This document shows positions 9,001-57,819 of a DNA stretch of 64,000 nt, one piece after another (the first letter of the stretch is position 1; every line of letters begins with the position of its first letter). Under the pieces are notes generated by a model that ran no database searches, was not told the DNA's origin, and was given only the letters and a program-made list of their open reading frames with translations. The translations under genes were made by a program, and so were the position numbers. The stretch lies in NCBI GenBank assembly GCA_964360785.1, contig CAYHXX010000003.1, positions 22,911 to 86,910 on the forward strand, in the 5' to 3' direction. Source of the DNA: an uncultured Gammaproteobacteria bacterium (GTDB taxonomy: Bacteria; Patescibacteriota; Microgenomatia; Woykebacterales; RBG-16-39-9b).

Positions 9001-12000
9001 CAGCATTATTAATTAAAAGTAGCTGAGCCGGATCAGCTGCACCTGCACCGTCGGCGCGAGCGAGAGTAGTGAAGTTTGTTCCACCAGTAGGAGTGGTAAC
9101 TGTGAAATCAGCTGAGGTTAAGGTAATAGCCAGATTACCTTCACCGGTAGTAACATCAATAGTTGGGCCAATTACGTAGGTTGCCTGGAGACTTTCTCCA
9201 CCGCCGGTGGTGTCGTTGTCAGCCGAACAAGTCCAGTTGCCGGTAGCTTTCTTTAAAATTTGGGTGTCCGAACAATTGAGAAGGCGGAGACCGTTGCCGC
9301 CACCAGCTGGATCAAGAGTTAGTCCTGAGAAATTTGCCGTACTATCAGAACCAGCCGTAGCCAAGAGTATTCCAAGAGAAGCCCCTTCGGTTCCAGTCAT
9401 CGTTAGCCCACCGTTGGCGGTAGCTGAGGAAACGTAGTTACCGGTGGTATCGGTAGTTAAGGTGACACTGTCAGCCGCAATAGTTAGTGCTGTTGTTCCA
9501 CCAGAACCCAAAGTGGCGGTCACATCGGAGCTGAAAGTGTGACCAGAAAGAATAATAGTTCCGGAAGCATTTGGAATTGTGATGGTGTTGTCTGTTCCGG
9601 CTGGCTCGGTGACCGCGATGAATGTCTCAATCAAATCATCAGTAGCACCTTCGAAAATCAAACCAGACTGGCCAAACTTTGCTCCATTTATCCCAAGAGC
9701 TGGATCTCCGGAAAGAGCAGTACTGACCTCGAATGCTAAGGTGACGTTACCAGAGGCTCCTCCGCCGGTAAGACCCAGACCAGCGGTGACATCAGTAATT
9801 ACTCCAGAAACCTCAGACTCAGTGACACCGCCATCCAAGACATTTAGCTCAGCCGAGCTGATAGAAACACTATTAGAAAGAATGTCATTTGCTCCAATAT
9901 TAATGGCGTTAACAATACCGGCAGCAGATGCATCAATCGCGTCGGTAATGGTACCAACGCTTGTTGTGAAAAGAATCCCATCCGTGTAAGCGAGGGCTAC
10001 ATTGGCGTCGATGGTTGTGTTATTGCCGGCGTTATCGCCGAGATTGATTGTTAGATTCCCCTCAGTATTGATCAGGCTAATAGTGTTACCGGCAACATAC
10101 TCAGACTGTAAACTACTAGTTCCAACATCATCAGAACCACAAGTCAAAACATTGGCGACTGTTTCCAGGGAAGTACAAGTGGTGAAACCAGCTGCGGGAA
10201 GGATGACCGAGGTGTCAGCATCGGTCAGAAACCGAATATTGCCAGTTCCAGCAGCCGAAATAGTTAAATTGGCGGTACCAGAAGAGATAATATCGCTGGT
10301 GGCACCACCGGCGAGAGTCAGAATTCCGTCCAAAGTGAGATCGCCATCACTGTCGATTGAGGCCTTTTCGTTGTCGGCTCCACCAACTCCAGACTCTATT
10401 ATTAATAACTTTTTATCCAAAGCATCGGCTTCGGTATCAATCTTGAAAGCAGCAATACGGTCGTTTGTTGTATCGTCGGAAGAATTTTGTAAGGTTAGGG
10501 TAGAGTCTGTTGTTGCACCTGAGAAATCAATAGTTAGGGAACCGCTGGCAACGATATTGTTGGCCCCGAGATTAATAGCATTGACGATGGCAGCATCAGA
10601 AATGTCTATGGCTGTGCCGATAGTAGCGCCGGTACCAGAGGTTGTAAAGAGAAGAGCAGTGGCAACATCGCCAGTAGTATTATTATCTACTACAACATTA
10701 TTATCGTTAGTAGCATCAGTTAAGTTAAAAAGTAAGTTACCATAAGTATTGGTAATATCAATGTTGTTTCCAAGCTGATAGGTATCATTTAGGTTTTGAC
10801 CGCTACCACCACCGCCACCACCTGCATCGGTTGAACAAGTCCAATTACCGGTAACTTTTTTCAAGATCTGGCCATTGGAACAAGCAAGTAAAGATAAACC
10901 ACCAGTAGTTCCATTGGTAAATTTTTCTAAACCAGAAAAGCTTGCACCAGCAGTAGTACCAGCTGTCGCTAGCCGGAAAGTTACGTTAGCAGTGTTGCCA
11001 ACTGGTTCTGTAACGTCAAAAACATCATCATTAAAATCTAGTATTGATAATGATCCGACCGTAGGAGTAGTTCTTAAACTAACTGAAGCAGCCCCGGCAC
11101 CGGTGTTGTCTGTACCACAATCCCATTCAAAATTGGTATTGTCCCACTCCAAAATTCCTCCTGCAGCACAACCTCGATAAAGCGACAGCCCGTCAGATGT
11201 TAAAGAGAGACCAGAGACAGATCCAGCACCTGTTGTCCCATCGACTGCATTTGTTTGAATCAAAATTCCAAGAGAAGCCCCTTCTGTACCAGTAAGAGTT
11301 AAACCACCGTTCGTTGTTGCACTGGAAACATAGTTGCCGATTGTGTCAGTTCCAAGTGCAACAGCATCAGCGGCAATTGTAAAGATTGTACTGCCGTCCG
11401 AGTCAAGAGAGATTGTTGAGTCCCCAGTAAATGAATGACCAGAGAGAATAATTGTGCCAGAGGCATCAGGAAAGGTGATAGTTTTGTCTGTGGTTGTTGG
11501 GTTTGTTATAGAAATATACGTTTCGATCAAGTCGCCAACAGCAGAACCTTCAAAGATTAGACCGGACTGGCCAAATTTTGCCTCATTAGCGCTGAGTGCA
11601 TGGTCTCCAGATAGAGCAGCACTCACATCAAAGCTCAAGGTTACAGCGCCGGCCAGGCCACCACCAGTTAACCCGAGCCCAGCGGCGACTGATTCAATCT
11701 CACCAGTAACTTCAGACTCATCGATACCTCCATCCAAAACGTTTAACTCAGCTGAGCTTATTGACACGCTATTGGAAAGAATATCGTTGGCACCGATATT
11801 AATGGCGTTAACAATCCCGGCAGCAGATACATCAATCGCGTCAGTGATGGTACCAACAGTTGTAGTAAAAAGAATCCCATCAGTGTAGGCGAGGGCTACG
11901 TTGGCGTCGATAGTTGTGTTGTTTCCAATTGCATCTCCTAAATTAACTTTAAAGTTGCCGGTAGCTGTGAGTAGGGAAATAGTTGGACCGCCGGTATAGG

Positions 12001-32935: not shown

Positions 32936-32951
32936 CTGGTAACAGTATAAT
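32922..32951 (+). promoter_or_regulatory. Promoter TTGTCA-18-TATAAT, 6 nt upstream of the receiver ATG at 32958. It lies inside the 3' end of the kinase gene.
   Basis: Perfect -10 and 5/6 -35. Confidence 0.45.
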
Positions 32952-32957
32952 CTCATT

Positions 32958-34056: not shown

Positions 34057-34133
34057 CCTGCAAGGCCCTGTCTGCCGACCAGTCTGCCGACCAGTCTGCC
34101 GACAGGCAAGACAGGCACGACCGTCCTTGCAAG
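34057..34133. repeat. Composite REP: the stem arms CCTGCAAGGCCC and CCGTCCTTGCAAG are separated by a 52-nt insert containing 3 x 12-nt tandem repeats (cTGTCTGCCGAC / CAGTCTGCCGAC x2).
   Basis: Tandem units at 34068-34103. Located 3' of the RAYT gene. Confidence 0.6.
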
Positions 34134-34637: not shown

Positions 34638-34655
34638 CAAGTCCCGGCCTTGCAG
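34634..34655. repeat. Degenerate REP-like copy TTGACAAGt-CCCGg-CCTTGCAG.
   Basis: Two substitutions relative to the consensus. It overlaps the TGA stop of 34227..34637 and lies just 3' of the giant gene's stop. Confidence 0.45.
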
Positions 34656-34661
34656 AGCAAG

Positions 34662-37600
34662 TTACTGTTGGTTCAAGATAAACCAGGTGAATTTGATAGC
34701 GGTTGTTGCCGAAGCAGTTGCTTGATCTGGTTGATCTCCACTACTACGTTCCAGTGCCACGACAAAACCCTCTCCGACTTTCTTTTCTTTAATATAAAGT
34801 GACAGCCCATTGGTTTTGGTTGAAGCGGTTAGGTTGATCAGGGATTCCTCTGTCACCTTGTCTGATTCAATAAAGACCTCAGTGGCATCAGCAGCAAAGA
34901 TAGCCTCACCAGCAGTCTTGGCCTCTTTCTTGACCACGGCTTCACCAAAGACCAATTTACCAAAATCACCGACTAATGCAGTTACTTTAGAGAAAAGTGC
35001 TTCGCCAGTGTCAGACACCCAAGCAACTGCTTGGCCAGTTGAATTTTCCCAAACAAATTTTGCTCCAGCCGAAAGAGGTGCAATTAAATCACCATTTTGG
35101 TCTAATGTCACGGTAGTCGCAGTTGTGGTTTCCAAGATTTGTTCTGGAGAAGGAACAAACCAAGTTCGGTTTACAAACACTAAAACTTTACCATCTTCGG
35201 TTGGTTCGTCAGAAGTTTTTGCTTGGTTTTCACTTCCTTGCAGCGTTGCTGATCCAGTCGCGACTGGGTTTTCTGAAGAATTTTCCTGGCCACCTTCTAC
35301 TCCAAGGCCCGGCCTTGGAGGGAAGTCTTCGAGAGCCATACCAATGACAAAACCGGCTTTCTTGGCTTTCATCGCCACTCCAGGAATACCCGAAGAGGTT
35401 AGATAATCACCGGCCTTGATAGGGTCGGCTCCGTTGTTGGTCGTAACGCGCAAGGGTACGCGTCCAGATAGGGCAACCGGATGTCCGCCGGGTTTGTTTT
35501 GGCCCAGTGTGAGTCCCGGTTCAGTCGAAACAATTCCGAGCATTTCATTTTGGTAAGGCTTATCGGTGGCAGTAATAAATTCACCTGTCTTATCGGTATC
35601 AACCGAAACCAAAGTCCCAGCGTCCAAGCCAATATCGGAGTAGTAGTACTCAGCCAAGTCAGCCCCACCGGTGAAGCCAACTTCGAGACCCTGACTACCA
35701 GTAAGAATGATACCGTCTTGAATCAGTTCTCCCCTAATATTAAAGAGTTGGTTGGCAAGATAATCCAGCCCCTGGCCGAGCCGAACATCTCTAGTTTCGG
35801 CATATATGTGAGCCTCCGTACCGATGAGCAAAGCTCTTCCTGAAAGATCTATAGAACGAATATCATCATAGTTCGTGCCAGTCCACTCAACGGCATAGTC
35901 ATCGGTTTGGGCTGAGTTGGAATGAAAGAGATCGGCGATAAGATTAGGTCCGGCTTGGTGGTTATAACAAGTCACGCCGCCACCATCTGCAGTATCATTG
36001 GTACCAATGCACATCTGTCTGGCTTCTCCCAAAGGAGATTCGGCCGTTACACCAACAGCCGTAACTGTATCGGATGCTCCGTATAAAGCCTCCGGGTCGA
36101 CTTCAAAATCAGTGGTCGTATCCGGAGTGGTGGCAAAATTGGATGAAACTGTAAGAGTCGTAGTGGTATTTGAAACAACGCGTCTGGTTTGTCCCACTCC
36201 GGTGCCGCCGGTAAGGGTGACTATCATGCCAGAAAATTCATTCGGAATCCAGGTTTCACCCGAGTCTCCAATAGTGCTTGAAGAAACGGTCGTAGCGTCG
36301 GTTACTGTTATAACTCGTTTTGCTACTAATGGCCGTGCATCGTTATATAAACGGCGGGCAGGAGCGGAGAGTAGTTGGGAAACCGTTGTTGCCCCGCTGC
36401 TGAAAGTAAAGTCGTCGATCGAACCATCCCAGAAGTTCGCGCCGGTAGCGCAGTTGGCAGCCCCTGCACAACTGGCTCCGATACTAGTCACCTGAGAAGC
36501 GGCGTCTACTGTCCCTGCTTGCGGTGTCGCATTGGTTGAATTCAAAATTTGTCCATCTATATACACATTAAGATCGCCGACGTTATCGCGTGCGAGTAAG
36601 AGAAAGTGCCACTGATCATCATTATAGGCAAGCGAGGAAGTCGACGTGATATCGTAAGTCGTGAACTGGGTGAATGTCGTGGTAGCATCAATGGCCCCGA
36701 CAATAGTCCCGGTAGTGGTCATATAGGCGACGACACACCCGACGACCGCGGCCGGTGTGGTGTTGTAGCATTTTTCGTACAAGACTTGCGGGGCAGCCGG
36801 GGCTGTTGTGGAGTGTTTGAACCACATGCTGATATTAAATGCCGTTGTAGTGCTGTTGAAACTAGCATCATTGTCACAGGTGGCGTCAGCATTGGCATCG
36901 GAACAAAGATAGCCCGCGCCACCCAGTGTCACACCCTTGCCGCGGACTCCACTGGCTCCAAGCGTAAAGGTTCCCTTGTAGCTCATATCGGTATTATTGA
37001 AACTGGCATCCTGCGCCAACGTTCCACTTGTTTCATCTAGTGGCAGAGCGGCATCAATAGCATTGGGCATCAACATGGTTTGACGGGTAGTGTTATAGAA
37101 TTTGGACCAACCGTTGGTGACAGTAGCGTTATCATGAATTTCGGTCAGACCCAAACTATGTCCGACATAAATAAGATCCATATTGTCTTGAGCGAGCGAT
37201 CCTCTTTCCACTACTTCCAAGGCGTCGGGCGCATCGGTTTGAATCGCCACCGCTCCCACTGCCAAAGCCGGGCCGACAGCTGAAGTCCAACGCGAAGTAT
37301 ACGTACCAGCTACTTCACTCGTCTTATCAGAATCAATCGCATCCCACTTTTCAGCCTGATCGGTTGTGGAATTCAAGGCATACATTTTACCGCTTTTTGT
37401 CAGGGCGACGGCTTCATAATTATCTGCCAATACATCTGAATATTGGAGCAGCTTTTGGGCTGCCAGGTTGATAATAGTCACTCCTGAATCGGTGGCCAGT
37501 GCCACAAACGATAGTCCTTGCCCGGGGATAACGTTTGTGGTACCACCGATGGTAATCGCCGAAAGACTGCTGTTGACGCTGACTGCGGCGACGTCGTTGA

Positions 37601-40600
37601 TGTTCATCCATTCCGCCGATGTGCCAACCGGGTCAAGTTGAAGCGCGGTTTTAGCGTCGCTGGCATAGGTAACAGCGCCGTTGCGCCCGCTGATACCAAC
37701 ATCCGCGCCAGCCCGATCGGTGGCGTCATAATTCCACATACGATCATTGACGAAGTCAAAGGCATACAAACCGCCGGAAGCAGTACCTTTTGCGCCGACA
37801 TAAATCACGCCGTTTAGTGCCGTGACACTGGACGGATCATTATTGGTATCTGCTCCTAGGGCCCAGCCGGCGGCATTCTGGCTAAACTTCATCCACATAT
37901 CATTGGTGGCCGCATCAAAAATATAAAGCGAGTCGGTGGTGACGATAAGGATGGCTTTACGGGGAAAAGCTTTGGCGTAACAACGGTCGTCGGTGGCGAT
38001 GACACAGGGATCACTAGGACCGTCATCAAGCGTTTCGTTGTACCAAGAAAGCTGGTCGGTAGTGGCCCAATCTATCCAACGGCCGCCATCACTGTCGGCA
38101 GTTGTATCATAGACATAAATGTCTTTGATTCCGGTTAGAGCAGTGATATCTGAATACCCTTGAGAGACTATTTCTCCGTAAACTGAGGCATTACCACGAT
38201 TGGTTGGGGAGCCGATCTGGAGTAGCCTCTCTGTGGAGCCAGTTATTGATATTGTCCCAACCCCAACTCGGCCGTCACCGTCAATTATAAATGGCGTTGT
38301 GTCGCTTGCGACATCATCAATACGGAGAGCCATGTTACCAGTTCCGGTAGCGCGATGATCAACATAAAGACTGGTGTTGGTATTGGCCGTACCAGTATTG
38401 CTCAGTTTGAGAAGGCTACCGGTATTGGCGGCGTTGGATCCAGAGAGAACCAGTTCGGTGAGGGAACCAGTGAAAGCAATTGCCGAAGAGCTGACCGTTA
38501 TACCTTTTCCTGAGGTCAAGCCGTTGGTAGTAATTGCTAGAGCAGTTTCACCGTCAATAGCGTTGGCAGTGAGGTTGATACCATTGGCTGCATTTGAAGC
38601 TTGTACTAAATCAAGTCCTAGGACAGCAGCGGTGGTGTTGTTTTGGTTGATCTGTAGTGTAAAAGCGCTGCTTGTTCCAGCTGAAGTTGGATTGGTGATA
38701 ACGATAGAGTCTTGGGTGGCATCAAGGGTGATCAATTGATCGCCAGCTGCACCAGCGTCATAAGTTTGCTGTAAGGTACCGCCACCACCGCCACAACCAG
38801 TACAAGAAGACACTGTTAAAGCAGCTGAAGCAAAGCTAAGAGTGGTAGCATTCGAGGTGAGATTTAGGCTCCCATTTCTGTAAAGATTAACGCTATTGGC
38901 ATCAGTTCCCCATTGGATTCCAGCAGAAACTGTAGTGGACGAAAAAGTCCCATCAAGACAATCAAAACAAAGCCCAATGTTTTTCGTACCACCGGCAGTA
39001 ATATTATCAATATGGACCCCGTAGGCATTGGTAATAACATCAGCAGTACCTTTAATTAAATCAGCAGCTTCGAGTGCAACACCATCTTGAAGGGTAATCG
39101 CTCCGCCAGTCGAGTCGTCGACTTTTACTGTCCCTGATATTCCGAAAGCTATCCCAGTCGGCGAGTTGATATTGACTATTGGTTGGGAGTAAATTCCAAC
39201 ACAGCCTCCAAAAAGGGCAATCGGACAAGTTGCAGAGCTATTGTTGACGTTACCAATTGCTTGGAAGATGCTTTGTCCTGCGGAGAATAGCAGAGTGCCA
39301 TTACCTGCAGCAGTATTGCCGATAAATTTAATAAAGCCATCGGTGTCGTTTTCCACCTTTTCGCCGTTGGTGAAGGTGATGTCTCCACTAGCCCCAGTGA
39401 AAGTAAGACCAGTGGTTCCACCAATGACAAAGTTGTCATCGGTTTTGAGAGTATCACTGGCAGAGCGGTAGAGAGTTACCAGATTGGTATCAGTCCCAAA
39501 CTGGATCCCTGCGGCCACCGTGCTCGAAGCCCAAGCACCATCACAGTCAAAACAGAGGGCAACATTAGTGTTGGCTCCTGAGACATCAGCAAGGTAGAGA
39601 CCGATGGCTGTGGTGGTTCCATTGGTGTCTCCAGTCGCGTCAAAGTAGCCTCCGTAGGTATTTCTTGTTCCTGTGCCGGTACTGGTATTAGAAGCAGATG
39701 AATAAATGCCGTAGAGGTTAAATACGACTGCGCCACCGGCGGTATCGATTCCTGTTTTACTGACGGTGTTATAAATTCCGTAATCATTTTGTGGGCTAAA
39801 GACTGAGGCAAACGCCGTACTTGAGGTCCAGGAATTGTAAACACCGTAGCTACCACCGCCATTATTATCGGTAGACGTGAAGGAATTATCAATACCTCTT
39901 ACATCATCAGTTGCGCTAGTGGTATTAACATCCAGCACGCCAGCACCGCCGACTGCTCCTGTGCCATTGATAAGGACTGTACTAGCAAAGGTAGTGGCAT
40001 CCTGAACATCGAGAATATCCGCACCGTTAATGATGACATCATTACCAGCTCCAGCTGAAGCGATGGTGATCGCACCCGTTGCAGTAATATCACCGACATC
40101 GGTGATTGTATTGGCATTGAAATCTAGGGTTGTATCGGAGAAGGAGTATTCAGTTGCATCATTTTCTCGTAAGTTAATCAAGCCGCCATCGGTGACGTTA
40201 ATCATCAAATCATTTGTACTCGAAGCATAGATTGATCTGACAGCTGAAGGGGCAGATGCATCAGCAGTTGTGAAGGTTAGGCTGTCGTTGGTGGTGTCAT
40301 CGACTTCTCCGGAGAACCCTCCAGGACAAGCTCCCCAAACTGGAACACCGCTAGCCCCAGCTCCAGAAAGTAGACACTGGCTGCCGGTTTCAGTTTCTAC
40401 GACTCGAGTAACGACTCCGCCAGTTGTTGTGTACAAAACCGCGTTAGCGTCAGTGATCATCGAAGAGAAGGTAATAGCTCCAGAGGAGGTGAGTGCTGTT
40501 GCGCCAGTGATTGCCCCTGCGCCAGTGATATCGATGGTTGGGGTGTTAAGAAAATTACTGTAACCATTACCAAAAGCACCGGTATTGGTGATACTGATTG

Positions 40601-42194
40601 CATCAGTAAGCAATAGATCGGTATCGGCGTTATCAATTGCGATTCCGACATCCAAACCATTACCACCAGCAGCCGCTGCTTGTTGAATAAACAAACCTTG
40701 GGTAGCGAAGTCGGAAGCATTTGGAGTCGCAATCAGTGAAATTACATTAACAGTACCCGCAAGATCTGAGGTCATAGCAATATTTTCTGTTCCGGCGAGA
40801 GTGAAGTTGGTATCGGTATTAAAGGTAGGAGTTCCGTTAACCGTAATAGTATCGCCGGTAGCGTTTCCAATTCCGATTGTTGTTGAGTTTACAGTTAAGG
40901 CTGTACCGTCATCGACGGTCAGTGTACCAGAAGAAAAACTGTCAGAAGTATCGCTTCGCAAGAATGAAAGAGAGTCAATTCCGTCCAAGCTGTCAGAGTT
41001 GAGAGCGTAACTTGAAGAAGCGATTCTTTGACGAGGAGCTGCTTCAGCATCAGCACCAATTTTTACCCCCAAGTAGAGCGCTGAGTTATCTGCAAAAAGG
41101 GTTGAGGGGATAGCGGTGTCGGCTTGTCCAGTATCGCCAAGTTGTACTGAAAAGATACCGTTTGCATCTGGTGTGACCGACCAAGTTTTGGATTCCCAAA
41201 GACAGGTGTTGGCACAAGGGTCTCCTGTGTCCCCACTGGTAGAGGTGTAAATTCGAAAAACGATGTTGGTAGCAATTGTGGTTGGGTTACCGCTTAGGTC
41301 AGTCAACCTTCCTTGGAAGGAAAGAATTCGGGGTGGGGTCGCAGCAAGGACTAGACCATCTTGGATCTCATTTTTGAGGTTGGTGATATCAAGGGGTTTG
41401 GGAGCAAAGAAACCCTCAAAAAGCAGTAATCCAACGACCAAAATCGCCCCAGTGCTGGCTGCCCAGTTGACGTAGTCGCTCATTGGGTGTCCTCGATAGG
41501 CGTGCCACCATCGGGGTTTGCTAAACTTAATTCGTTGCCAGAAATGCCCAACATTTGCAAGGACGGGCCTTGTAATGGTGACGGGGTTGGTTTCGTAGAC
41601 AATATCTTCCTTGTGGAGGTTAAAGAATGATTTCAAACTATAAAGTTGACTTTGGATTGTGCTCTCTGTTGTTCCCTTTGATCGCAAGTAAGATATATAT
41701 CTTTCTATATCATTGTGACTCACTTTGTCGATATTCTTCTGTGATAAAGTTTCCGCGCCACTCTGATTTGGTTTTAACCAAGCGAAGAATGAAGCTACTC
41801 CTGCGGTATAAAGCTTGGTTGTGCTCGAGGCTGCCCCCTCGGATTTAATATGTTCGGAGTAAACTTCAATCGGTGAAGAAAGGGTATTGTCTGATATCTT
41901 TTGAGGTATTTGAGTAATAGTAACTAGGTTATAACCTTTGGAGTTTAGCCAACTGCAAAATGATTTGAGACTGTAACCAAATCTCCGCAGCGTTGACTCT
42001 GAAAACTGTCCCCCTAGAGTTGCAACGGCTTGGTTTAGAGAATCCTGCCCGATCTCCAAATCTGCCGGAAGTTTCTCAAGAATTGTCTTCAAATCAGAGG
42101 TGTAGTTCTTGATTGTTGAACGCGAAGAATTAGTTGAAGATAAGTAATCTATGAAAGATGGTAGAAGACTGTGTAGTTCTTTTGAAGTTAGCAT
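34662..42194 (-). CDS. Giant surface protein, 2,510 aa as the open frame. The N-terminal 237 aa carry two integrase SAM-like (core-binding) repeats. Met238 (41483) is followed by a TM helix and a Thr/Gly/Ser/Asn-rich ectodomain ending in the conserved C-terminal module (...FTWFILNQQ).
   Basis: Open frame from 42194 to 34662. N-terminal STIKNYTSDLKTILEKL and STIQSQLYSLKSFFNL (SAM-like). MSDYVNWAASTGAILVVGLLLF TM. A 500-nt block at 38990-39480 is about 85% identical to 52000-52510 in the 50888..54199 gene. C-terminal GDYLTSSGIPGVAMKAKKAGFVIGMALEDF. Confidence 0.7.
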   Translation of the reverse strand: MLTSKELHSLLPSFIDYLSSTNSSRSTIKNYTSDLKTILEKLPADLEIGQDSLNQAVATLGGQFSESTLRRFGYSLKSFCSWLNSKGYNLVTITQIPQKISDNTLSSPIEVYSEHIKSEGAASSTTKLYTAGVASFFAWLKPNQSGAETLSQKNIDKVSHNDIERYISYLRSKGTTESTIQSQLYSLKSFFNLHKEDIVYETNPVTITRPVLANVGHFWQRIKFSKPRWWHAYRGHPMSDYVNWAASTGAILVVGLLLFEGFFAPKPLDITNLKNEIQDGLVLAATPPRILSFQGRLTDLSGNPTTIATNIVFRIYTSTSGDTGDPCANTCLWESKTWSVTPDANGIFSVQLGDTGQADTAIPSTLFADNSALYLGVKIGADAEAAPRQRIASSSYALNSDSLDGIDSLSFLRSDTSDSFSSGTLTVDDGTALTVNSTTIGIGNATGDTITVNGTPTFNTDTNFTLAGTENIAMTSDLAGTVNVISLIATPNASDFATQGLFIQQAAAAGGNGLDVGIAIDNADTDLLLTDAISITNTGAFGNGYSNFLNTPTIDITGAGAITGATALTSSGAITFSSMITDANAVLYTTTGGVVTRVVETETGSQCLLSGAGASGVPVWGACPGGFSGEVDDTTNDSLTFTTADASAPSAVRSIYASSTNDLMINVTDGGLINLRENDATEYSFSDTTLDFNANTITDVGDITATGAITIASAGAGNDVIINGADILDVQDATTFASTVLINGTGAVGGAGVLDVNTTSATDDVRGIDNSFTSTDNNGGGSYGVYNSWTSSTAFASVFSPQNDYGIYNTVSKTGIDTAGGAVVFNLYGIYSSASNTSTGTGTRNTYGGYFDATGDTNGTTTAIGLYLADVSGANTNVALCFDCDGAWASSTVAAGIQFGTDTNLVTLYRSASDTLKTDDNFVIGGTTGLTFTGASGDITFTNGEKVENDTDGFIKFIGNTAAGNGTLLFSAGQSIFQAIGNVNNSSATCPIALFGGCVGIYSQPIVNINSPTGIAFGISGTVKVDDSTGGAITLQDGVALEAADLIKGTADVITNAYGVHIDNITAGGTKNIGLCFDCLDGTFSSTTVSAGIQWGTDANSVNLYRNGSLNLTSNATTLSFASAALTVSSCTGCGGGGGTLQQTYDAGAAGDQLITLDATQDSIVITNPTSAGTSSAFTLQINQNNTTAAVLGLDLVQASNAANGINLTANAIDGETALAITTNGLTSGKGITVSSSAIAFTGSLTELVLSGSNAANTGSLLKLSNTGTANTNTSLYVDHRATGTGNMALRIDDVASDTTPFIIDGDGRVGVGTISITGSTERLLQIGSPTNRGNASVYGEIVSQGYSDITALTGIKDIYVYDTTADSDGGRWIDWATTDQLSWYNETLDDGPSDPCVIATDDRCYAKAFPRKAILIVTTDSLYIFDAATNDMWMKFSQNAAGWALGADTNNDPSSVTALNGVIYVGAKGTASGGLYAFDFVNDRMWNYDATDRAGADVGISGRNGAVTYASDAKTALQLDPVGTSAEWMNINDVAAVSVNSSLSAITIGGTTNVIPGQGLSFVALATDSGVTIINLAAQKLLQYSDVLADNYEAVALTKSGKMYALNSTTDQAEKWDAIDSDKTSEVAGTYTSRWTSAVGPALAVGAVAIQTDAPDALEVVERGSLAQDNMDLIYVGHSLGLTEIHDNATVTNGWSKFYNTTRQTMLMPNAIDAALPLDETSGTLAQDASFNNTDMSYKGTFTLGASGVRGKGVTLGGAGYLCSDANADATCDNDASFNSTTTAFNISMWFKHSTTAPAAPQVLYEKCYNTTPAAVVGCVVAYMTTTGTIVGAIDATTTFTQFTTYDITSTSSLAYNDDQWHFLLLARDNVGDLNVYIDGQILNSTNATPQAGTVDAASQVTSIGASCAGAANCATGANFWDGSIDDFTFSSGATTVSQLLSAPARRLYNDARPLVAKRVITVTDATTVSSSTIGDSGETWIPNEFSGMIVTLTGGTGVGQTRRVVSNTTTTLTVSSNFATTPDTTTDFEVDPEALYGASDTVTAVGVTAESPLGEARQMCIGTNDTADGGGVTCYNHQAGPNLIADLFHSNSAQTDDYAVEWTGTNYDDIRSIDLSGRALLIGTEAHIYAETRDVRLGQGLDYLANQLFNIRGELIQDGIILTGSQGLEVGFTGGADLAEYYYSDIGLDAGTLVSVDTDKTGEFITATDKPYQNEMLGIVSTEPGLTLGQNKPGGHPVALSGRVPLRVTTNNGADPIKAGDYLTSSGIPGVAMKAKKAGFVIGMALEDFPPRPGLGVEGGQENSSENPVATGSATLQGSENQAKTSDEPTEDGKVLVFVNRTWFVPSPEQILETTTATTVTLDQNGDLIAPLSAGAKFVWENSTGQAVAWVSDTGEALFSKVTALVGDFGKLVFGEAVVKKEAKTAGEAIFAADATEVFIESDKVTEESLINLTASTKTNGLSLYIKEKKVGEGFVVALERSSGDQPDQATASATTAIKFTWFILNQQ
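41555..41576. repeat. REP-like palindrome (inverted on +, canonical on the - strand), in frame inside the 5' region of the giant ORF 34662..42194.
   Basis: TTTGCAAGGACGGGCCTTGTAA. It separates the SAM-like N-terminal region from Met238 and the TM helix. Confidence 0.55.
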
Positions 42195-42464: not shown

Positions 42465-43430
42465 ATGTTTAACAAAAATCTAAAGGTTGTGGTTGCAGGT
42501 CTTTTAGTTGCGGTTTTGACAGTTGTTCCCTTTATTATCAAACCAACTAAAGTTGAGTCGGCGACCGCACTAAAAATAGTCGCTCTAGGTGATTCAATAA
42601 CAGGATTGGGTGGATTTATTACAAAGTACAAAAACTACTTAATTGGTGATTTAAAGAACTATAGTACTGTTACCAATCTGGGAGTAAATAATTCAACCAG
42701 TTCTGATCTGGTGCAATCAATAACAAACAACCAAACTGTTCGAAGTAGTGTAGCGAGTGCAGACTTGGTAACTGTTGAAATCGGAATTAATGACTTCTTT
42801 CAGGCCAGGGGTAGATATTTATACGGTGTTTGCGGCGGAGTAGATAATCAAGACTGTTTGCGAAGTACGGTAACTAATTTTGAGATAAATTGGAATACAA
42901 TAATTGGCCAAGTAAAAGGTTTAACTGATTCGAGCACAGCCATCAGGGCTCTTGATATTTATTACTCAGTAGTTGTTGCAGATCAAGGTACTGGGTCGCC
43001 GGAAAATAGTACTTTTGTTGTACTCAACTCTTATCTTGAACAGATGAACGCTCATATCCACGCTTCGGCTGTTGCCAACTCTATACCAGTTGCACAGGTA
43101 CATCGTGCTTTTAACGGTCTCACAGGAGCCGAGGATCCTATCGCCAAGGGTTATATTCTTCTTGATGCAGTACATCCGACCGATCTGGGTTCACGGGTTA
43201 TTGCCACGGAACTTCGAGTACTTGGGTATGCACCATTAAAGCAACCCTGTCCGGATGTAAATGGTGATACCAGGATAAACTCGACTGATCAATTGATAGT
43301 CGCTCAGAGGTTTGGGGCAACTATCGGTACATCAAAATACCTTGAGTCGGCGGATGTAAATGGTGATGGGAAAATAAACTCAGGTGATATGTTGATAATC
43401 GCCCAACAGTTTAACAAAAAATGCCTTTAA
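42465..43430 (+). CDS. Secreted SGNH/GDSL-family hydrolase with a C-terminal type-I dockerin module.
   Basis: Signal peptide. GDSL block IVALGDSITGLGGF. DAVHPT catalytic His block. Two Ca-binding dockerin repeats DVNGDTRINSTDQLIVAQRF and DVNGDGKINSGDMLIIAQQF bracketed by Cys. Confidence 0.7.
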   Translation: MFNKNLKVVVAGLLVAVLTVVPFIIKPTKVESATALKIVALGDSITGLGGFITKYKNYLIGDLKNYSTVTNLGVNNSTSSDLVQSITNNQTVRSSVASADLVTVEIGINDFFQARGRYLYGVCGGVDNQDCLRSTVTNFEINWNTIIGQVKGLTDSSTAIRALDIYYSVVVADQGTGSPENSTFVVLNSYLEQMNAHIHASAVANSIPVAQVHRAFNGLTGAEDPIAKGYILLDAVHPTDLGSRVIATELRVLGYAPLKQPCPDVNGDTRINSTDQLIVAQRFGATIGTSKYLESADVNGDGKINSGDMLIIAQQFNKKCL

Positions 43431-43501
43431 TCTATACATTGAATAAATGTAAGTATTATTAGAGGTTGTTATTTGAAACCACAGGATGTAAATTAGAGTT
43501 A

Positions 43502-50861: not shown

Positions 50862-50882
50862 CTGCAAGGCCCGTCCTTGCAG
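50862..50882. repeat. REP-like palindrome CTGCAAGG-CCCGT-CCTTGCAG between convergent genes.
   Basis: Perfect 8-bp stem. Located between the stop of 50405..50860 (+) and the stop of the giant gene 50888..54199 (-). Confidence 0.7.
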
Positions 50883-50887: not shown

Positions 50888-53800
50888 TTACTCTTGGTTG
50901 ACGATTAGCCAGTTGAACTCGACTTTTTTGCTGCTTATGTTTCCCGGGAAGCGTTTGATGCCGACGACAAAACTTTTTCCGGCTATTTTGGACTTAATGT
51001 AAAGCACACCGTCTGGTTCAGAATCTGGAGTCAGGTTAATTAATGAATCTTCCTTAACTTTATCACTTTGTATAAGCACCTCATTTTGATCTGCTACGAG
51101 CTCACCAGTCCCCGCGCTTTGAGAACCTTTTTTAACTGCAATCTCTCCAAAAACAAGCTTCTGGAAGCTGGCAAAAACCGCTGTCACTTTGCTAAATATT
51201 GCCTCGCCAGATTTAGAAATAAAGGCACTCAGATAACTTGTTTCTGAATCTAAGTTTTGGGTAGGTGCTTCTCTAAGATTTACGTAAAAACTGTTGTCAA
51301 CAAAGACCAAGATTTTCCCTATCCCTAAAGCGCTGTAAGAGCCCAAGGCCTTCCCAATAGTCGGTCCGGTAGATGTAGCTTTCATCGCTACTCCCGGGAT
51401 TGAAGAAGATGTCAAATAATCGCCAGGTTTAATTGGTCCTTTTTCAGTAGAAACCTTTACCGGTACACGTCCGATTAAGGCAATTGGTTTGGGATTATTC
51501 AGGTAAGGTTTAGCGGTTTCACCCAATATTTCTCCACTTGGGTTTGTGGACACTATTCCAAGTAATGTATTTTGGTAGGAAGTAGAGGATTTAACTACGT
51601 GGGCAATAGAAGTTTTACCACCGTAATAATGGGTCTCGTAAGCTTCACCGTCGAGTACAACGAGAGTGCCTTCGTCTGAATCATCATTAACACCGTAGTA
51701 CTCAGCTAAATCGGCTTGTGTTCCACCACAATCTCCAATTTGCTGAACCCCTGTCGCAGCATCAGCGCCGTTGTGGCAGAGGCGCTGGGCAGTACCACCG
51801 ACTTGAGCAGAAAGATTAATAGAGGTTGTAGTTGTATTTGATTGAATCAAAACCGTACCAGCCCCATCGTCAATTGTTGCTTGGGCTGCTGTAGCGCCGT
51901 TGCTTCGATAAAGCCTTAGGTTTTGGGTCGTGGTCGCGTCATTACCCCATTGGATTCCTCCTGAGACCGTCGTTGAAGAATGGGTTCCATCAAGGCAATC
52001 AAAACAAAGCCCAATGTTTTTTGTACCACCTGCAGTGATATTATCGATATGAACCCCGTATGCATTAGTGATAACATCAGCGGCACCTTTGGTTAAATCA
52101 GCAGCTAGGATTGCGACACCATCCTGAAGAGTGATCGCTCCGGCAGTCGAATCATCAACCTTTACTGTACCTGATATTCCGTATGCCGCACCTGTTGGGG
52201 AGTTGATGTTTACTGTTGGTAATGAGTAAATACCTACACAACCTCCGAAGGATACAATCGGACAGGTTGCAAAGCTGTTGTTGACATTACCAATGGCTTG
52301 GAAGACGCTTTGTCCAGCTGTGTAAATTAAAGTACCACTACCGGCAGCGGCGTTGCCAATAAGTTTTATAAAGCCATTCGTGTCGTTTTCCACCTTTTCC
52401 CCATTGGTAAAAGTAATGTCCCCACCAGCGCCAGTGAAGGTGAGACCGGTAGTTCCACCAACGACAAAGTTATCATCGGTCTTCAGGGTATCGGCAGCAG
52501 ATCGGTAAAGGTTAGCATCGCCCCCAAGAGTTAAGGTAGCAGCTAAATTTAAACCACCACCAGCAGTAAAATCTGTTCCAGCGTTTCCAATATTCAAAGC
52601 GAGGTTAGTATTAAAATCAACATTTCCAGCCATAGTTCCACCTGACAAAAGTAAGTAGTTGGAGACGGTTATTGTGTTTGGTATATCTGCATCCAGTAAT
52701 CCAGTTACTCCAGCTACGGTTACACTTCCAATAAGCGTACCACCACCGAGTGGGAGATAGTTGGAAGCTGTAATGTTGTCAGCGACATTAGCATCGCCCA
52801 AACTTCCAGTAATCGAACTAAATAACCCAAGAGCTAAAATCACACTACCATTCCCAAGTGTTCCCGAATTTATCGCGGTTGCATCAATACTGCTTGTACT
52901 GGCAATTGTAATTGTGTTGGGAATGTCCCCATCTGCTAAACCGGTAACACCAGCTACAGTCAGAGACCCGCTTAAAATACCACCGGATAACGGTAGATAA
53001 TTTGAGGCAGTAATGGTATCGGCAATGTTGGCATCCCCAAGAATTCCAGTGATTGATCCAAAAATTCCTAATGCCAGAGTGACCCCACCGTTTCCTAAAG
53101 TCCCAGAAGTAATGTTAGTCGCATCTATACTGGTTAAGTTAATCCCTGAAAGAGCAGGTAGCTGAGCTGATCCATTAAGTTGAACTAGTTGGTTTGCACC
53201 ATTAAATACATTTCCCTGTTGAGTAACTGAGGTATCAATATTCAAAGTAACCAAACCAGAAGATCCGCCGCCAGAAAGTCCAGTACCGGCGACAACTGCG
53301 GTGATTGTTCCACTGCCCGAACTTGAAGCAGTTGCGGAGATTGTGATTGCATTGGTCAGCGTGTTCTTCTTGAGGATAATATTACTTCCGGCAATTAGGT
53401 CAATTGAGCCGGCTAAGTCGGGTTTATCCTTAATATACTCCCAGCCAATCTCTGCCTTTATCTCACCCGGAATTTCTAAATTACCATCGTTGTTTAGAGT
53501 AACAAAACTGTTCTCCTTATTATTAATTTGATACCCATTGATAGACTTTGTTGTAATCGAATCAACATCAATTTTATTGGTAAAAGTTAATTTGTCCCCG
53601 TCTTTTTGGATATAGTCAGAGATGTTAGTTAGTCCGAGTGGATCAAGAGCGTCGCTTGTTTTAATCACCTTAAGTATTCCCAGGTTAAGGTATGAGAGTG
53701 GGGAGACAATTGCTTTCGCAACTCTCACAAAACCATTCTCATTTTTTGTACTTGTTCCGAGGACTTTTTGATTAGTTTGAACTTGATTAGCAAAAAGAGA

Positions 53801-54199
53801 AGTTAGTAACAGAATTGCTACCAAGACAGTTAAACCAATCACAACTCTCGGTATAAAGTTTGATTTCTGTTCTGGGATTAGAGTAATTTCTCCCTCTGTA
53901 TTTTGTGCTCGTTTAACTTTGATTTTAGGCTGGTTTTGTAACAACACTTTTTGCTCAGCGATGCTTTTGCCCTTGGCACGTTTCTTCTCGATAGCAACTA
54001 TCTGCTCGACAACTTCGAGTTTAAAAGCTGCGCTTGGAGGTTCATTGTTGAAAGACTTACGCTTAGCGTGGGGAAGTAGGCCGAACTTAATATAGTAGCG
54101 GATTCGGTTTTCTGGGTTCGAATCGCCAAAATTAACACCCCTGGCTTGGGCCAATTTTATTATTTTTGATATCGGATAAAGATCGTTGTTAGTTCTCAT
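50888..54199 (-). CDS. Large surface protein (1,103 aa): N-terminal MerR-like HTH, TM helix, tail-fibre-like Gly/Thr/Asn beta-repeats, and the conserved C-terminal module ending FNWLIVNQE.
   Basis: N-terminal ISKIIKLAQARGVNFGDSNPENRIRYYIKFGLLPHAKRKSFN...IVAIEKKRAKGKSIAEQ (MerR-like). TM IGLTVLVAILLLTSLF. Repeats GTLGNGGVTLALGIFGSITG...ITASNYLPLSGG. A block shared with 34662..42194. Confidence 0.75.
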   Translation of the reverse strand: MRTNNDLYPISKIIKLAQARGVNFGDSNPENRIRYYIKFGLLPHAKRKSFNNEPPSAAFKLEVVEQIVAIEKKRAKGKSIAEQKVLLQNQPKIKVKRAQNTEGEITLIPEQKSNFIPRVVIGLTVLVAILLLTSLFANQVQTNQKVLGTSTKNENGFVRVAKAIVSPLSYLNLGILKVIKTSDALDPLGLTNISDYIQKDGDKLTFTNKIDVDSITTKSINGYQINNKENSFVTLNNDGNLEIPGEIKAEIGWEYIKDKPDLAGSIDLIAGSNIILKKNTLTNAITISATASSSGSGTITAVVAGTGLSGGGSSGLVTLNIDTSVTQQGNVFNGANQLVQLNGSAQLPALSGINLTSIDATNITSGTLGNGGVTLALGIFGSITGILGDANIADTITASNYLPLSGGILSGSLTVAGVTGLADGDIPNTITIASTSSIDATAINSGTLGNGSVILALGLFSSITGSLGDANVADNITASNYLPLGGGTLIGSVTVAGVTGLLDADIPNTITVSNYLLLSGGTMAGNVDFNTNLALNIGNAGTDFTAGGGLNLAATLTLGGDANLYRSAADTLKTDDNFVVGGTTGLTFTGAGGDITFTNGEKVENDTNGFIKLIGNAAAGSGTLIYTAGQSVFQAIGNVNNSFATCPIVSFGGCVGIYSLPTVNINSPTGAAYGISGTVKVDDSTAGAITLQDGVAILAADLTKGAADVITNAYGVHIDNITAGGTKNIGLCFDCLDGTHSSTTVSGGIQWGNDATTTQNLRLYRSNGATAAQATIDDGAGTVLIQSNTTTTSINLSAQVGGTAQRLCHNGADAATGVQQIGDCGGTQADLAEYYGVNDDSDEGTLVVLDGEAYETHYYGGKTSIAHVVKSSTSYQNTLLGIVSTNPSGEILGETAKPYLNNPKPIALIGRVPVKVSTEKGPIKPGDYLTSSSIPGVAMKATSTGPTIGKALGSYSALGIGKILVFVDNSFYVNLREAPTQNLDSETSYLSAFISKSGEAIFSKVTAVFASFQKLVFGEIAVKKGSQSAGTGELVADQNEVLIQSDKVKEDSLINLTPDSEPDGVLYIKSKIAGKSFVVGIKRFPGNISSKKVEFNWLIVNQE
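52560..53110. repeat. Intragenic tandem repeats of about 240 bp (an 80-aa unit, ...GTLGNG.V.LALG.F.SITG.LGDAN.AD.ITASNYLPL.GG...) in the 50888..54199 gene. They are shared with 56340-56600 of the 54865..57819 gene.
   Basis: Two or more adjacent near-identical nucleotide units, with a paralogous block in the neighbouring giant gene. Confidence 0.65.
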
Positions 54200-54864: not shown

Positions 54865-57819
54865 TTAATTGACAATAAACCAGTCGAAGCTAATATCGTG
54901 AGTAGTTGGTTGCTCAACCTCAACCATAAAGTAGTTACCTGCTTGTTTTTCCGTAACTACCAGAGTTTGCCCTGAGGTGAAGTTTAGCGCAGTGACAAAA
55001 ACCCGCGAAGTACTTTTCACCAAGTTACTTGGAACAATCACTTTTGTTGTTCCGGAGACAATTTTAGCTGTCCCCACAGAGCCCCCAGAAGCGTCTACGG
55101 AAAGTTCAGTGATCTTTAGTTTTGTTGTCTCTACACTTTGGGCAAAGAGGGTCTTAGAAATTGTTAAGTTGCCTTCTAAGTTTATATCTCCAATAATTTC
55201 AATCTTTCCCGAGGCGCCCAATTTGATTTGATTCTTGCCAAGCACTATCTCTGTAGCAGAGATTGAAGAGTTAGTGGTTCCGGAGATTGGCTTAGTGTAG
55301 TAACTTGAATTCACCAGGACCAAGACTTTTCCAACCCCAGTTTGGTTGAAACTTTGCAAAGACTTACCGATAACCGGACCGCTCTCGGTTGCTTTCATCG
55401 CAACCCCAGGGGTTGAAGAGGATGTTAAATAGTCACCAACTTCAACCGGTCCGTTTTCAGTCGAGACTTTGGTTGGGACCCGTCCGGTGAGTGCCAGTTT
55501 CGCGATGTGTTGCGGGTTGCCGAGAGCGTCGGGGTTATCAATAAAAGTTGGGTCAGTACTTTCAATTCCGATTAAAGTTTTTTGGTAAGGTAAGCTAGAT
55601 TTTTTAACCTTTAAATCAGTGGCCGTAGTATCAATTGCCAAGACATCACCAGCCTCTAACTTCTCACTAGCCACTGCTCGTTCGGCAATATCAAAAGTTC
55701 CAGTGCGGTTCCAGTAGCTACAAGTCCCACCGGTTCCTTTCCAATAAATCCGATTATTTGTTGAATCATAACCAAAATCACCGTTGGTTAAAGAAGCACA
55801 ACTGGGAGCGGCTTGAGCAGTATTCAGGTTAAATCCAACTGCAGAGGTAGAAGCAGTTGAAGCGCTAAGTTTTGCACCAAAATTGGAAGCAGCGTTGAAA
55901 ATGTTAGTACCAGTTGTTCCTGATTGATAAATCGGGTAGATATTAGTCCCAACTGTAATGTCTTGTATTTCAATTCCATAGCTATTGGCAGGAGTCCCTC
56001 CAAGGATAGAGGGTGAAACAATCGATACTCCGACAAGAGTAGCGACTGAACCAGATCCAGCCCCAGTATTTACAGTTGCTTGTATTGCGGCTAGAGTTGT
56101 TGCACCCCCACTTCCGGAGTAGGTTGAGATCGAATCAAGTCCAATCAAACTAATACTTGTATCTGCACCACTGTAGATAGGTAAAGTACGAATCCCAAAA
56201 GTTAATGGGTTGCCAACTCCGTTGAAACTACTGGTTGGTGCTACTAATAAACCAGAATAGATGACATCTGCGGATTGAGATTCGGAGAAGTACGCAATCG
56301 CCGATGAAGTAATTGCAGCAGTACTACCAAAAGCGCCATGACCGTTGGCATCGAGATCCGTTGCTAGATTTAAACCACCACCGGCAGTAAAATCTGTACC
56401 GGCGTTGCCGATATTGATAGCTAGATTGTTATTGAAGTTAGCATTTCCAGCCATAGTTCCACCAGTTAATGGCAGATAGTTTGACGCTGTTATTGTGTCA
56501 GCCACGTTTCCATCGGTCAGACTTCCGGTTATGGAACCAAAACTCCCCAACGCTAAAGTAACCGATCCGTTACCCAAGGTTCCGGAATTAAGAGCAGTGG
56601 CCGAAACACTACTGGTATTGGCAATTGTAATTGAGTCTGAAACCGCACCATCGCCAACACAACTAGTACAAGTAAAAGTTCCAAGCACACTCAGGGTAGT
56701 TCCGGCATCTAAAGTTAAAGTTCCGGAGGTAAAATTGTCCGTAGTATCAGAACGTAAGAATTGAGCTGAATCGATTGAATCAAGCAAATCAGCGTTAACC
56801 CCAGAACCAGCTAAATTGAAAGTAATCGAATTAGTTGAATCGTTGGAAGTGATCGTAACTCCAGCTCCGGCGATAAAATCAATATCGCCAGCATTATTTT
56901 TTATCCCATCAATACTTGAAATTGCTTCATTGGCAAGAGAAAGAGCAAAAGCATTGCCGATTCTTGTGATATTTACCCCATTTCCTGTAAGGCTCAAGCC
57001 TGCAAGACCAGTACTCACTGAAGTATCGGCAATGTCTTTTATAGTCTCAGCTGTCCAATAAAGATCAGCACTACAGCTTAATAATTGGGCAATATCAAGA
57101 GTCAGAACACAAGCTTCGGTTGCTCCGGAGAGATTGGGAAAGGTAATTTCTTTACTCAAAATCTTTTTTACATCAATACTCTCGACGGTTAAACTATCAT
57201 TGGTGATTAGGGAATTCTCCAAGGAAATAGGAGCTGAAGGGTCAGAGATTATAGTTTTTTGAATAGTAACTTCTTGTTTTTCGTTAATGGTGATGACTTT
57301 GCCGACATTGGTCAAACCCAGAGGATCAGTCGAGCTAGCATTTTCATCCTTAGCCTCTCGGATCAGGGCAGCTAATACATTACCAACAGGTTTTGCCACG
57401 ACATTATTGGTCACAGAATTGTTGAAAGTTATTGTTAGGGTAATAGCACCGAGGAAAATTAGGAAAAAAAGTCCCGATAGCATCAAAAGCGATTTGCTGG
57501 CTTTTTGGTAGGTGTCAACTAAGCTACGTAGATCAGTTGGTTTTCTGAGAAATTCTTGACGCTGTTCTTCAATAACCTGTTTGATTTGGGAGAGGCTCTT
57601 GCCTTCTTTAAGCATTTTGTCGATCGAAACGATACGATCAACTGCTGTAGCTGGAAAATCGCCATTGAGAAGTTTTGGTACAAGACCATTCTGAACATAG
57701 GTCTCGATTGTTTGTTGGTGGTTGTCACCGAGGTTTACATCATGGTCAAGGCAGCGGCCAATAAGTTGTTCGATATTTATGAGCTGATCTCGTTGAAACG
57801 GGTTTTCGTCAAGAAACAT
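54865..57819 (-). CDS. Large surface protein (984 aa), paralogue: divergent MerR-like N-terminal HTH, TM, Gly/Thr/Asn repeats including YLPLTGGTMAGN, and the conserved C-terminal module.
   Basis: N-terminal ...TIETYVQNGLVPKLL...IVSIDKMLKEGKSLSQIKQVI. TM LLMLSGLFFLIFLGAITLTI. Repeat GTLGNGSVTLALGSFGSITGSLTDGNVADTITASNYLPLTGGTMAGN. C-terminal GDYLTSSSTPGVAMKATESGPVIGKSL...FDWFIVN. Confidence 0.75.
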   Translation of the reverse strand: MFLDENPFQRDQLINIEQLIGRCLDHDVNLGDNHQQTIETYVQNGLVPKLLNGDFPATAVDRIVSIDKMLKEGKSLSQIKQVIEEQRQEFLRKPTDLRSLVDTYQKASKSLLMLSGLFFLIFLGAITLTITFNNSVTNNVVAKPVGNVLAALIREAKDENASSTDPLGLTNVGKVITINEKQEVTIQKTIISDPSAPISLENSLITNDSLTVESIDVKKILSKEITFPNLSGATEACVLTLDIAQLLSCSADLYWTAETIKDIADTSVSTGLAGLSLTGNGVNITRIGNAFALSLANEAISSIDGIKNNAGDIDFIAGAGVTITSNDSTNSITFNLAGSGVNADLLDSIDSAQFLRSDTTDNFTSGTLTLDAGTTLSVLGTFTCTSCVGDGAVSDSITIANTSSVSATALNSGTLGNGSVTLALGSFGSITGSLTDGNVADTITASNYLPLTGGTMAGNANFNNNLAINIGNAGTDFTAGGGLNLATDLDANGHGAFGSTAAITSSAIAYFSESQSADVIYSGLLVAPTSSFNGVGNPLTFGIRTLPIYSGADTSISLIGLDSISTYSGSGGATTLAAIQATVNTGAGSGSVATLVGVSIVSPSILGGTPANSYGIEIQDITVGTNIYPIYQSGTTGTNIFNAASNFGAKLSASTASTSAVGFNLNTAQAAPSCASLTNGDFGYDSTNNRIYWKGTGGTCSYWNRTGTFDIAERAVASEKLEAGDVLAIDTTATDLKVKKSSLPYQKTLIGIESTDPTFIDNPDALGNPQHIAKLALTGRVPTKVSTENGPVEVGDYLTSSSTPGVAMKATESGPVIGKSLQSFNQTGVGKVLVLVNSSYYTKPISGTTNSSISATEIVLGKNQIKLGASGKIEIIGDINLEGNLTISKTLFAQSVETTKLKITELSVDASGGSVGTAKIVSGTTKVIVPSNLVKSTSRVFVTALNFTSGQTLVVTEKQAGNYFMVEVEQPTTHDISFDWFIVN

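Follow-up and report, generated by a model that had tools for sequence, protein, structure and literature searches.

The present study concerns two giant genes, here designated A and B, of an uncultured ultra-small groundwater bacterium with a Patescibacteria (candidate phyla radiation, CPR) genome, and a sequence block that is found in both of them. The genes are located on a stretch of 64,000 nucleotides (nt), referred to as the window, which corresponds to positions 22,911 to 86,910 of contig CAYHXX010000003.1 of GenBank assembly GCA_964360785.1; all positions given below follow the numbering of the window, and according to the contig names the samples were 0.1 um filter fractions. As had been proposed in an earlier reading of the bare sequence (hereafter the original prediction), the window was found to harbour four giant genes, each of them on the minus strand. 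Gene A (34662..42194) specifies a protein of 2510 amino acids (aa), as established from the list of open reading frames, Pfam and NCBIfam scans, hydropathy analysis and the independent assembly L104, while gene B (50888..54199), taken from the same list of reading frames and from the independent assembly L111, specifies 1103 aa. Gene C (54865..57819) encodes 984 aa with an architecture as in B, and the fourth giant gene, D (2..14425), starts at 14425 and continues beyond the left edge of the window, so that its product exceeds 4808 aa.

Comparison of the window with itself by blastn established that its strongest internal repeat is a match between 38899..39481 in A and 51936..52517 in B (minus strand in both cases), with 80.3% identity over 583 nt (E=1.5e-150). 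This block, which was delimited by blastn together with sliding windows in A and with protein alignment in B, encodes residues ~905-1099 of A and ~562-755 of B; it extends from LYRSASDTLKTDD to GIQWGTDA..LYR and includes four conserved cysteines, and in the protein alignment residues ~897-1100 of A and ~556-757 of B are 84% identical. The block and the shared peptide quoted in the original prediction are therefore real, although the identity of about 85% given for the DNA was slightly high, as 38990-39480 and 52027-52517 are 79.4% identical in an ungapped comparison, and the term near-identical overstates a similarity of 80% in DNA and 84% in protein. The edges of the block are sharp on both sides: 50-nt windows display 70-94% identity within it and 22-34% directly outside both edges, while 30-residue windows of the local protein alignment display 77-97% within and 13-33% outside, and no significant similarity was detected between the sequences that flank the block in A and those that flank it in B (blastp E>0.05). 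Beyond the block, the only homology between A and B resides in the C-terminal ~300 aa, which are 52% identical between A and B, 41% between B and C and 39% between A and C. The remainder of the two proteins had been described as much more diverged, which calls for correction as regards the direct flanks, where no similarity is detectable. The anticipated mosaic pattern, as opposed to uniform divergence, was thus recovered by the sliding-window analysis, and the mosaic of A and B is real and was produced by recombination.

The age of the block was assessed by Nei-Gojobori counting of synonymous (dS) and nonsynonymous (dN) divergence and, free of any substitution model, by scoring how often identical degenerate amino acids are specified by the same codon, as compared to permutations that retain the codon composition of each copy. 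For the block, a proportion of synonymous differences (pS) of 0.57-0.59 was obtained, with a dS of ~1.1, a dN of ~0.08-0.10 and a dN/dS of ~0.08, whereas the C-terminal domains yielded pS values of 0.74-0.80, representing saturation. The same codon was used at 96 of 168 such positions of the block (57%) against 68.4 +/- 5.4 in permuted data (41%, p<1e-4), while the corresponding counts for the C-terminal domains (51/138, 37/101 and 39/105) were at chance (p=0.15-0.37). The dS and the excess of shared codons in the block, set against saturation and chance-level codon usage in the C-terminal domains, establish that the block is more recent in common ancestry than the C-terminal domain, yet old, and that both of its copies are held by strong purifying selection. 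Its mismatches are evenly spread, and the longest identical run of 26 nt is close to the permutation mean of 22 (p=0.21). The designation of these sequences as gene-conversion tracts was consequently abandoned: the block does stand out as a well-delimited stretch of higher identity, but its synonymous divergence is not near zero and its patches of identity are no longer than expected, contrary to what recent gene conversion would leave behind, and homology does not continue on either side but resumes only in the C-terminal domain, so that the block does not represent a replacement inside an alignable pair of paralogues. No sign of ongoing conversion was observed between the two genes.

Each protein has precisely two LYR[S/N] motifs (residues 908 and 1104 in A, 564 and 763 in B), which coincide with the ends of both copies, and the block accordingly appears, as judged by these boundaries, to be exactly one complete module of ~197 residues. 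Its opening motif, G.D.NLYRSA.DTLKTDDNF, is a widespread repeat linker, shared by numerous proteins of Patescibacteria and found in some other bacteria as well. The full module, by contrast, is rare: a word-index protein search with the block alone missed even B, and in the exhaustive HMMER search of 1.84 billion cluster representatives that was used instead only B was more than 50% identical to the A block, the next matches being P0003 (44% over query residues 21-202 of 202) and P0008 (42%, partial). The four cysteines (C-x8-C, CFDC) are common to both copies and P0003, and in the latter protein GIQWGTD is followed by an LFRS motif similar to the closing motif of the block. Pattern scans of genome and metagenome DNA revealed no close copy of the block, the best candidates reaching ~30% across its full length or 48% across one half. 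Directly upstream of the block, A carries the tail of a diverged unit of the same module type (39474..39614, minus strand; ..NVALCFDCDG..GIQFGTDTNLVT), which ends at the LYRS that opens the block and which was detected by blastp, the block matching residues 690-896 of A at 45% over 38 aa (E=7e-7).

Gene B shares a further segment with gene C. This segment (52542..52917, minus strand; B residues ~411-553) is 72% identical to C at the protein level and displays SNYLPLSGG and AGTDFTAGGGLNLA motifs, while its counterpart in C was placed by blastn at 56363..56636 on the same strand. In the self-comparison, 52542-52677 and 56363-56498 are 79% identical over 136 nt, in keeping with the B/C similarity that had been noted between 52566-52700 and 56386-56520, and 52737-52917 and 56456-56636 are 72% identical, B having an extra 34-aa repeat unit relative to C in this tract. 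A dS of ~1.3 and a same-codon p value of 0.006 were obtained for the B/C tract. Self-blastp of each protein listed no internal repeats; targeted alignment nevertheless demonstrates an internal duplication in B. The C-like and the A-like matches in B end 25 nt apart, the junction between them being positioned at 52518..52541 (minus strand) by blastn and protein alignments. The first ~300-450 residues of B are ~70% identical to P0099 and P0098, of which P0099 is the positional orthologue of B at locus L110 of a related genome (gene order comEC-comEA-C-like-124 aa-B-like), and P0098 is encoded by the only giant gene between comEA and leuS at loci L107 and L108; the block is absent from both proteins (E>0.2). 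Adjacent segments of B thus have different closest relatives, namely P0098/P0099 (~70%), C (72%) and A (84%), followed by the C-terminal domain, and B is a chimera of C-like and A-like segments, which indicates that modules were shuffled by recombination among the giant genes. In this respect the module-shuffling recombination envisaged in the original prediction is sustained by the mosaic structure, the younger age of the block and the chimeric nature of B, though not as a process that is still operating on what proved to be an old tract.

Two side observations relate to the same region of B. The independent assembly L106, which represents the same population, ends at 52907 within the internally duplicated, C-similar region of B, while L111 starts at 52639, and the fragmentation of B in other assemblies is probably due to its repeats. 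At positions 1-1648 of locus L114 (GCA_964367355.1) a C-like gene is stopped soon after the motif GTNFTAGGGLSIATTL, which also precedes the C-like/A-like junction in B; either breakage may recur at this site, or the stop could be an assembly or frameshift artefact.

Gene A is likewise a mosaic. Its residues 1-~740 match P0122, P0123 and P0125 at 58-70%, residues 1216-2291 match P0121 and P0124 at 56-60%, and the C-terminus matches many proteins, while no close relative was found for residues 875-1215, which hold the block. P0123 (1663 aa) is the syntenic orthologue of A at L114 and retains A residues 1-718 (72%) as well as the C-terminus (64%); at its residues 843-890 it possesses the tail of the upstream unit (YGICFDC..GIQWGNDANAVTLYR) as in A before the block. 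The block itself is absent from P0123, and no B gene is present in the L114 genome. A signature of CxDC plus GIQWG was found in 3 of 30 A-type relatives (with a SAM-like N-terminus, as described below) and in 0 of 10 relatives of the MerR-like type to which B, C and D belong, a difference that is not significant. The upstream tail in P0123, this distribution and the absence of the block from the orthologues of B together suggest an origin of this module type in A-type genes, with B as the presumed recipient.

The four giant proteins each begin with a DNA-binding-like domain that is followed by a single hydrophobic anchor, the N-terminal regions being specified by 41500-42194 in A (aa 1-230), 53870-54199 in B, 57490-57819 in C and 14100-14425 in D. 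In A, Pfam and NCBIfam scans identified two XerC/D-type SAM-like (core-binding) domains, with the catalytic domain absent: positions 3-90 of 290 of the XerD model were matched (43 bits against a cut-off of 330), and the SAM-like domain was matched twice. The assignment of A as a tyrosine recombinase or site-specific integrase was rejected, as only this N-terminal domain is present, without the C-terminal RHRY catalytic domain, and the name 'site-specific integrase', which is often given to relatives of A in public records, looks like a misannotation when judged from domain content. Hydropathy analysis positions the anchor of A at ~aa 245-265, after which come a long extracellular region, including a LamG/ConA-like stretch, and the C-terminal domain of the family. 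B consists, in this order, of a weak MerR-like N-terminal helix-turn-helix (HTH), a transmembrane segment at ~aa 113-139, the internal duplication, the C-like segment, the A-like block and the C-terminal domain, while C comprises a weak MerR-like N-terminus, a transmembrane segment, a fibre region and the C-terminal domain. The N-terminus of D resembles that of B (38%) and that of C, and in all three proteins the MerR-like HTH is sub-threshold and precedes a transmembrane segment. No N-terminal signal peptide was evident in any of the four giant proteins upon inspection by eye, for which no prediction tool was employed, and a fibre that spans the membrane and carries a DNA-binding domain on the cytoplasmic side would be of unusual architecture. 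The long remainder of the proteins is rich in T, S, G and A and contains motifs of the tail-fibre type. Relatives are distributed across the Patescibacteria (Woesebacteria, Levybacteria, Gottesmanbacteria, Saccharimonadales and others), and some of these carry Peptidase_S74 or the name 'tail fiber domain-containing protein'; no Peptidase_S74 or similar domain was identified by Pfam in A, B or C. The giant proteins would thus be membrane-anchored surface fibres with the N-terminus inside the cell, and such fibres are probably trimeric. Gene D is highly repetitive, with nine copies of a 48-nt motif (family D1) and with internal duplications at 9369-10027 versus 11265-11926 (72%) and at 12399-12520 versus 12885-13006 (78%); no close copy of the A/B block was found in D, and Tandem Repeats Finder reported no arrays within the giant genes.

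The C-terminal 294 residues of B (50888-51770) were modelled at a predicted local distance difference test score (pLDDT) of 75 as two beta domains. The first of these (model residues ~20-165, pLDDT ~90) matches the C-terminal parts of phage tail and appendage proteins, Foldseek comparison with BFVD returning E values down to 3e-11, with 'preneck appendage' and tail-fibre-like proteins among the matches and with models named 'preneck appendage protein' at E~7e-9 to 2e-8. The predicted fold also bears a weak resemblance to the C-terminal auto-chaperone domain of the phi29 gp12 pre-neck appendage (PDB 3suc and 3gqh, E~5e-3 to 1.5e-2), with which it shares a low sequence identity of 14-32%. The last ~90 residues, ending in F.W[LF]I.N, make up the second, small beta domain, which is conserved across many Patescibacteria giant proteins.

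On balance, and with a probability of roughly 0.65, the shared block is ascribed to a single, ancient event in which an entire module was copied from one fibre gene to another of different construction, with an A-type gene as the probable donor and B as the probable recipient, and to strong purifying selection thereafter. One non-reciprocal recombination event would have copied the module from A, or from a close relative of A, into B, where it would have been joined to the segment that B shares with C; about one synonymous substitution per synonymous site would have accumulated since, with purifying selection keeping both copies nearly unchanged in protein. The direction of transfer from an A-type gene to B, its occurrence as a single event, its intragenomic origin and the function of the carriers as surface fibres are what we infer from the data presented above. 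The conservation of both copies at the protein level points to a specific function of the module, such as binding or assembly. A number of observations weigh against this scenario. The direction depends on small numbers of relatives with the signature, and no available genome is close enough for a tree of block copies, so that a single transfer and rare repeated homogenisation are indistinguishable. Nei-Gojobori estimates of dS near 1 are imprecise, and a sub-window at A residues ~1020-1080 displays a dS of 0.55-0.66, a weak hint of heterogeneity which could stem from a later partial exchange. Cluster representatives hide mosaic proteins, A itself not being returned by the HMMER search, and an external donor could be missed for this reason. 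Finally, AlphaFold2 modelled the block from an alignment of four sequences at a pLDDT of just 31, and its description as an autonomous domain rests on its sequence boundaries only.

An outside donor, either another Patescibacteria lineage or a phage tail-fibre gene, that supplied both genes or B alone is considered unlikely. Such a source would be in agreement with the mosaic structure of A and its segment without a close relative, with the phage-like C-terminal domain, and with the finding, described below, that segments of the giant genes are closer between related genomes than adjacent housekeeping genes, which suggests exchange between lineages; however, the A and B blocks are each other's closest relatives, and neither the 1.84 billion cluster representatives, among which B alone exceeded 50%, nor the DNA scans contained a close copy. 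Active or recurrent gene conversion (concerted evolution) among paralogous surface genes, by which surface diversity would be generated, has in our view about one chance in ten. The sharp-edged tract, the second tract shared by B and C, the sub-window of lower dS and the break of an independent assembly at 52907 in the repeat region of B are in line with such a process, but the dS of ~1.1 without an excess of identical runs, the non-homologous flanks and the fact that what is shared is conserved (dN/dS 0.08) and not variable argue against it. In addition, the assemblies L104-L106 and L111-L113, which derive from the same Hainich groundwater population, are 99.8-100% identical, with 5 single nucleotide polymorphisms in 9.9 kb, one of which falls in the B/C tract, a count that is not significant. 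These data speak for shuffling of modules of the ordinary kind, and not for an active system of gene conversion or antigenic variation.

It is improbable that no transfer took place at all and that A and B descend from one duplicated gene, the block being its most constrained domain and the rest having diverged past recognition. The strong purifying selection on the block and the homologous C-terminal domain of A and B are compatible with such a descent, but the block keeps shared codons (57% against 41% expected) and the C-terminal domain does not, so that the two differ in age; furthermore, the N-terminal domains of A (SAM-like) and B (MerR-like) are unrelated, the syntenic P0099 and P0098 possess the N-terminus of B without the block, and the segment of B beside the block is C-like. 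An artefact, in the form of a chimeric metagenome assembly or of the template/variable repeat pair of a diversity-generating retroelement (DGR), is dismissed as highly improbable, since, although the source is a metagenome-assembled contig and DGRs directed at surface proteins are known from Patescibacteria (bioRxiv 10.1101/2020.04.01.020958), both copies and the junction recur in independent assemblies of other samples, which excludes a chimera (L104 is 99.995% identical to the window across A; L111 is 100% identical to 49889-52639, which spans the B block and the C-like/A-like junction), while a DGR pair is excluded by 130 mismatches that are not adenine-specific (27 and 28 involve adenine in the respective copy), by their ordinary spectrum of 78 transitions and 52 transversions, and by a tract of 583 nt that far exceeds a DGR repeat.

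The closest analogues appear to be the modular mosaicism of phage tail fibres and the giant-protein cluster of Apilactobacillus kunkeei. Haggard-Ljungquist et al. in 1992 and Sandmeier in 1994 are said to have described mosaic phage tail-fibre and tailspike genes in which modules are exchanged at conserved linker motifs. Here too the proteins are fibrous and consist of repeat-rich modules, adjacent segments have different closest relatives, boundaries are located at short linkers (LYRSxxxTLKTDD, NYLPLSGG and FLRSD), and the modelled C-terminal domain is structurally akin to those of phage appendages and tail fibres; in contrast, the genes described here are bacterial and chromosomal, flanked by leuS, comEA and comEC, their products have an N-terminal transmembrane anchor with a cytoplasmic DNA-binding-like domain, and the exchange would have occurred within one genome. 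In the cassette-type gene conversion responsible for antigenic variation at Neisseria pilE/pilS, Borrelia vlsE and Anaplasma msp2, variable segments are copied into an expression site between conserved homologous flanks, and the tracts are virtually identical to the donor and vary within a population. Non-reciprocal copying of segments between surface-protein loci of one genome is common to these systems and to the present case, but what was copied here is the conserved part, which lacks homologous flanks and has reached a dS of ~1.1, in a uniform population. The small genome of A. kunkeei harbours a cluster of very large surface-protein genes, Giant1-5, for which tree incongruence, within-gene recombination and domain exchange between distant lineages have been reported, with no conversion seen between genes of one genome (PMC12863079). 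In the present case, by contrast, a module that is 84% identical is found in two genes of the same genome, and the protein families are unrelated.

The evolutionary phenomenon itself is familiar, and the locus adds a further instance of it. It shows how giant surface proteins are built in ultra-small, probably host-dependent bacteria: the ends are conserved, with a cytoplasmic domain and anchor on one side and a phage-like C-terminal domain on the other, and the middle is made up of exchangeable modules. As the shared module is under strong constraint, it may well serve as a functional domain, for example in binding. Two mis-readings are corrected by the analysis, namely that of an active conversion or antigenic-variation system and that of A-type proteins as integrases. 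A more speculative and, on the sequence data at hand, rather doubtful possibility is that the LYRS-bounded four-cysteine module acts as a mobile ligand-binding cassette, swapped at linker motifs among giant fibres within and between Patescibacteria lineages in the manner of the host-range cassettes of phage tail fibres, and that its carriers constitute an undescribed class of membrane-anchored fibres with DNA-binding-like cytoplasmic N-termini (a doubled XerD-type core-binding domain or a MerR-like HTH). Contact at the cell surface might then be linked to the binding or uptake of DNA or to the regulation of genes, a notion that derives from the location of giant genes next to comEA/comEC in the window, L108 and L110.

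A giant fibre gene directly adjoins comEA in the window (54865-59703), in L108 (9126-14431) and in L110 (3794-13729), with comEC beyond comEA in the window and L110. The giant genes located between comEA and leuS are C and B in the window, one gene in L107/L108, and a C-like, a B-like and another gene in L110; at L114 the split C-like gene and a BrnT/CopG toxin-antitoxin pair are situated next to leuS, comEA being outside the stretch that was fetched. As compared to L110, L108 and L107, the N-terminus of B is 71% identical at the protein level with a same-codon fraction of 0.61 against 0.39 expected, and C is 66-71% identical, whereas the adjacent arginyl-tRNA synthetase (44%) and ComEC (45%) are both saturated. 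As compared to L114, protein identities (same-codon fractions in brackets) are 84% for a PAS histidine kinase (0.59), 81% for a dCache sensor (0.55) and 72% for leucyl-tRNA synthetase (0.41). The uneven synonymous-site similarity of these syntenic orthologues suggests exchange of segments between related lineages.

Repetitive extragenic palindromic (REP)-like sequences of the form CAAGGCCCGTCCTTG matched 10 times in the window as compared to 0.08 expected, with positions at 15461, 19065, 25507, 33359, 33559, 34638, 35303, 41558 and 50865; they are often preceded by TTGA, and most copies are intergenic. Two of these palindromes lie on the plus strand just 3' of A (34638..34652) and just 3' of B (50865..50879), and not at the block; the sequences around them, 34638-34691 and 50865-50917, are 83% identical by blastn. 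The copies at 35303 and 41558 fall within the reading frame of A. A distance of ~1.1 kb separates the B block (end at 51936) from the closest palindrome, and no copy comes within 2 kb of the A block. The suggestion that the local REP density contributes to the recombination is therefore not supported, there being no copy at any block edge, and REP-mediated exchange, or exchange through REP-associated tyrosine transposases (RAYTs), was rejected on the same ground. An IS200-like Y1 transposase gene is located at 33391-34050, with two REP-like copies flanking its start, and may represent a RAYT; a 12-nt tandem repeat, GTCTGCCGACCA, is present in 2.8 copies at 34070-34103. Rfam and tRNA scans of the window returned no matches.

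Tandem paralogous genes for GDSL lipases/esterases, each fused to a C-terminal type I dockerin, are present at 42465-43430 and 43466-44497 (64.5% nt identity); dockerins with no obvious cohesin partner in the window are unexpected for a small genome. Paralogous segments were also identified in sensor and response-regulator genes, with 24381-24752 and 32946-33318 being 69% identical and 23958-24216 and 29057-29315 likewise 69% identical, such that segmental similarity between paralogues is not confined to the giant genes.

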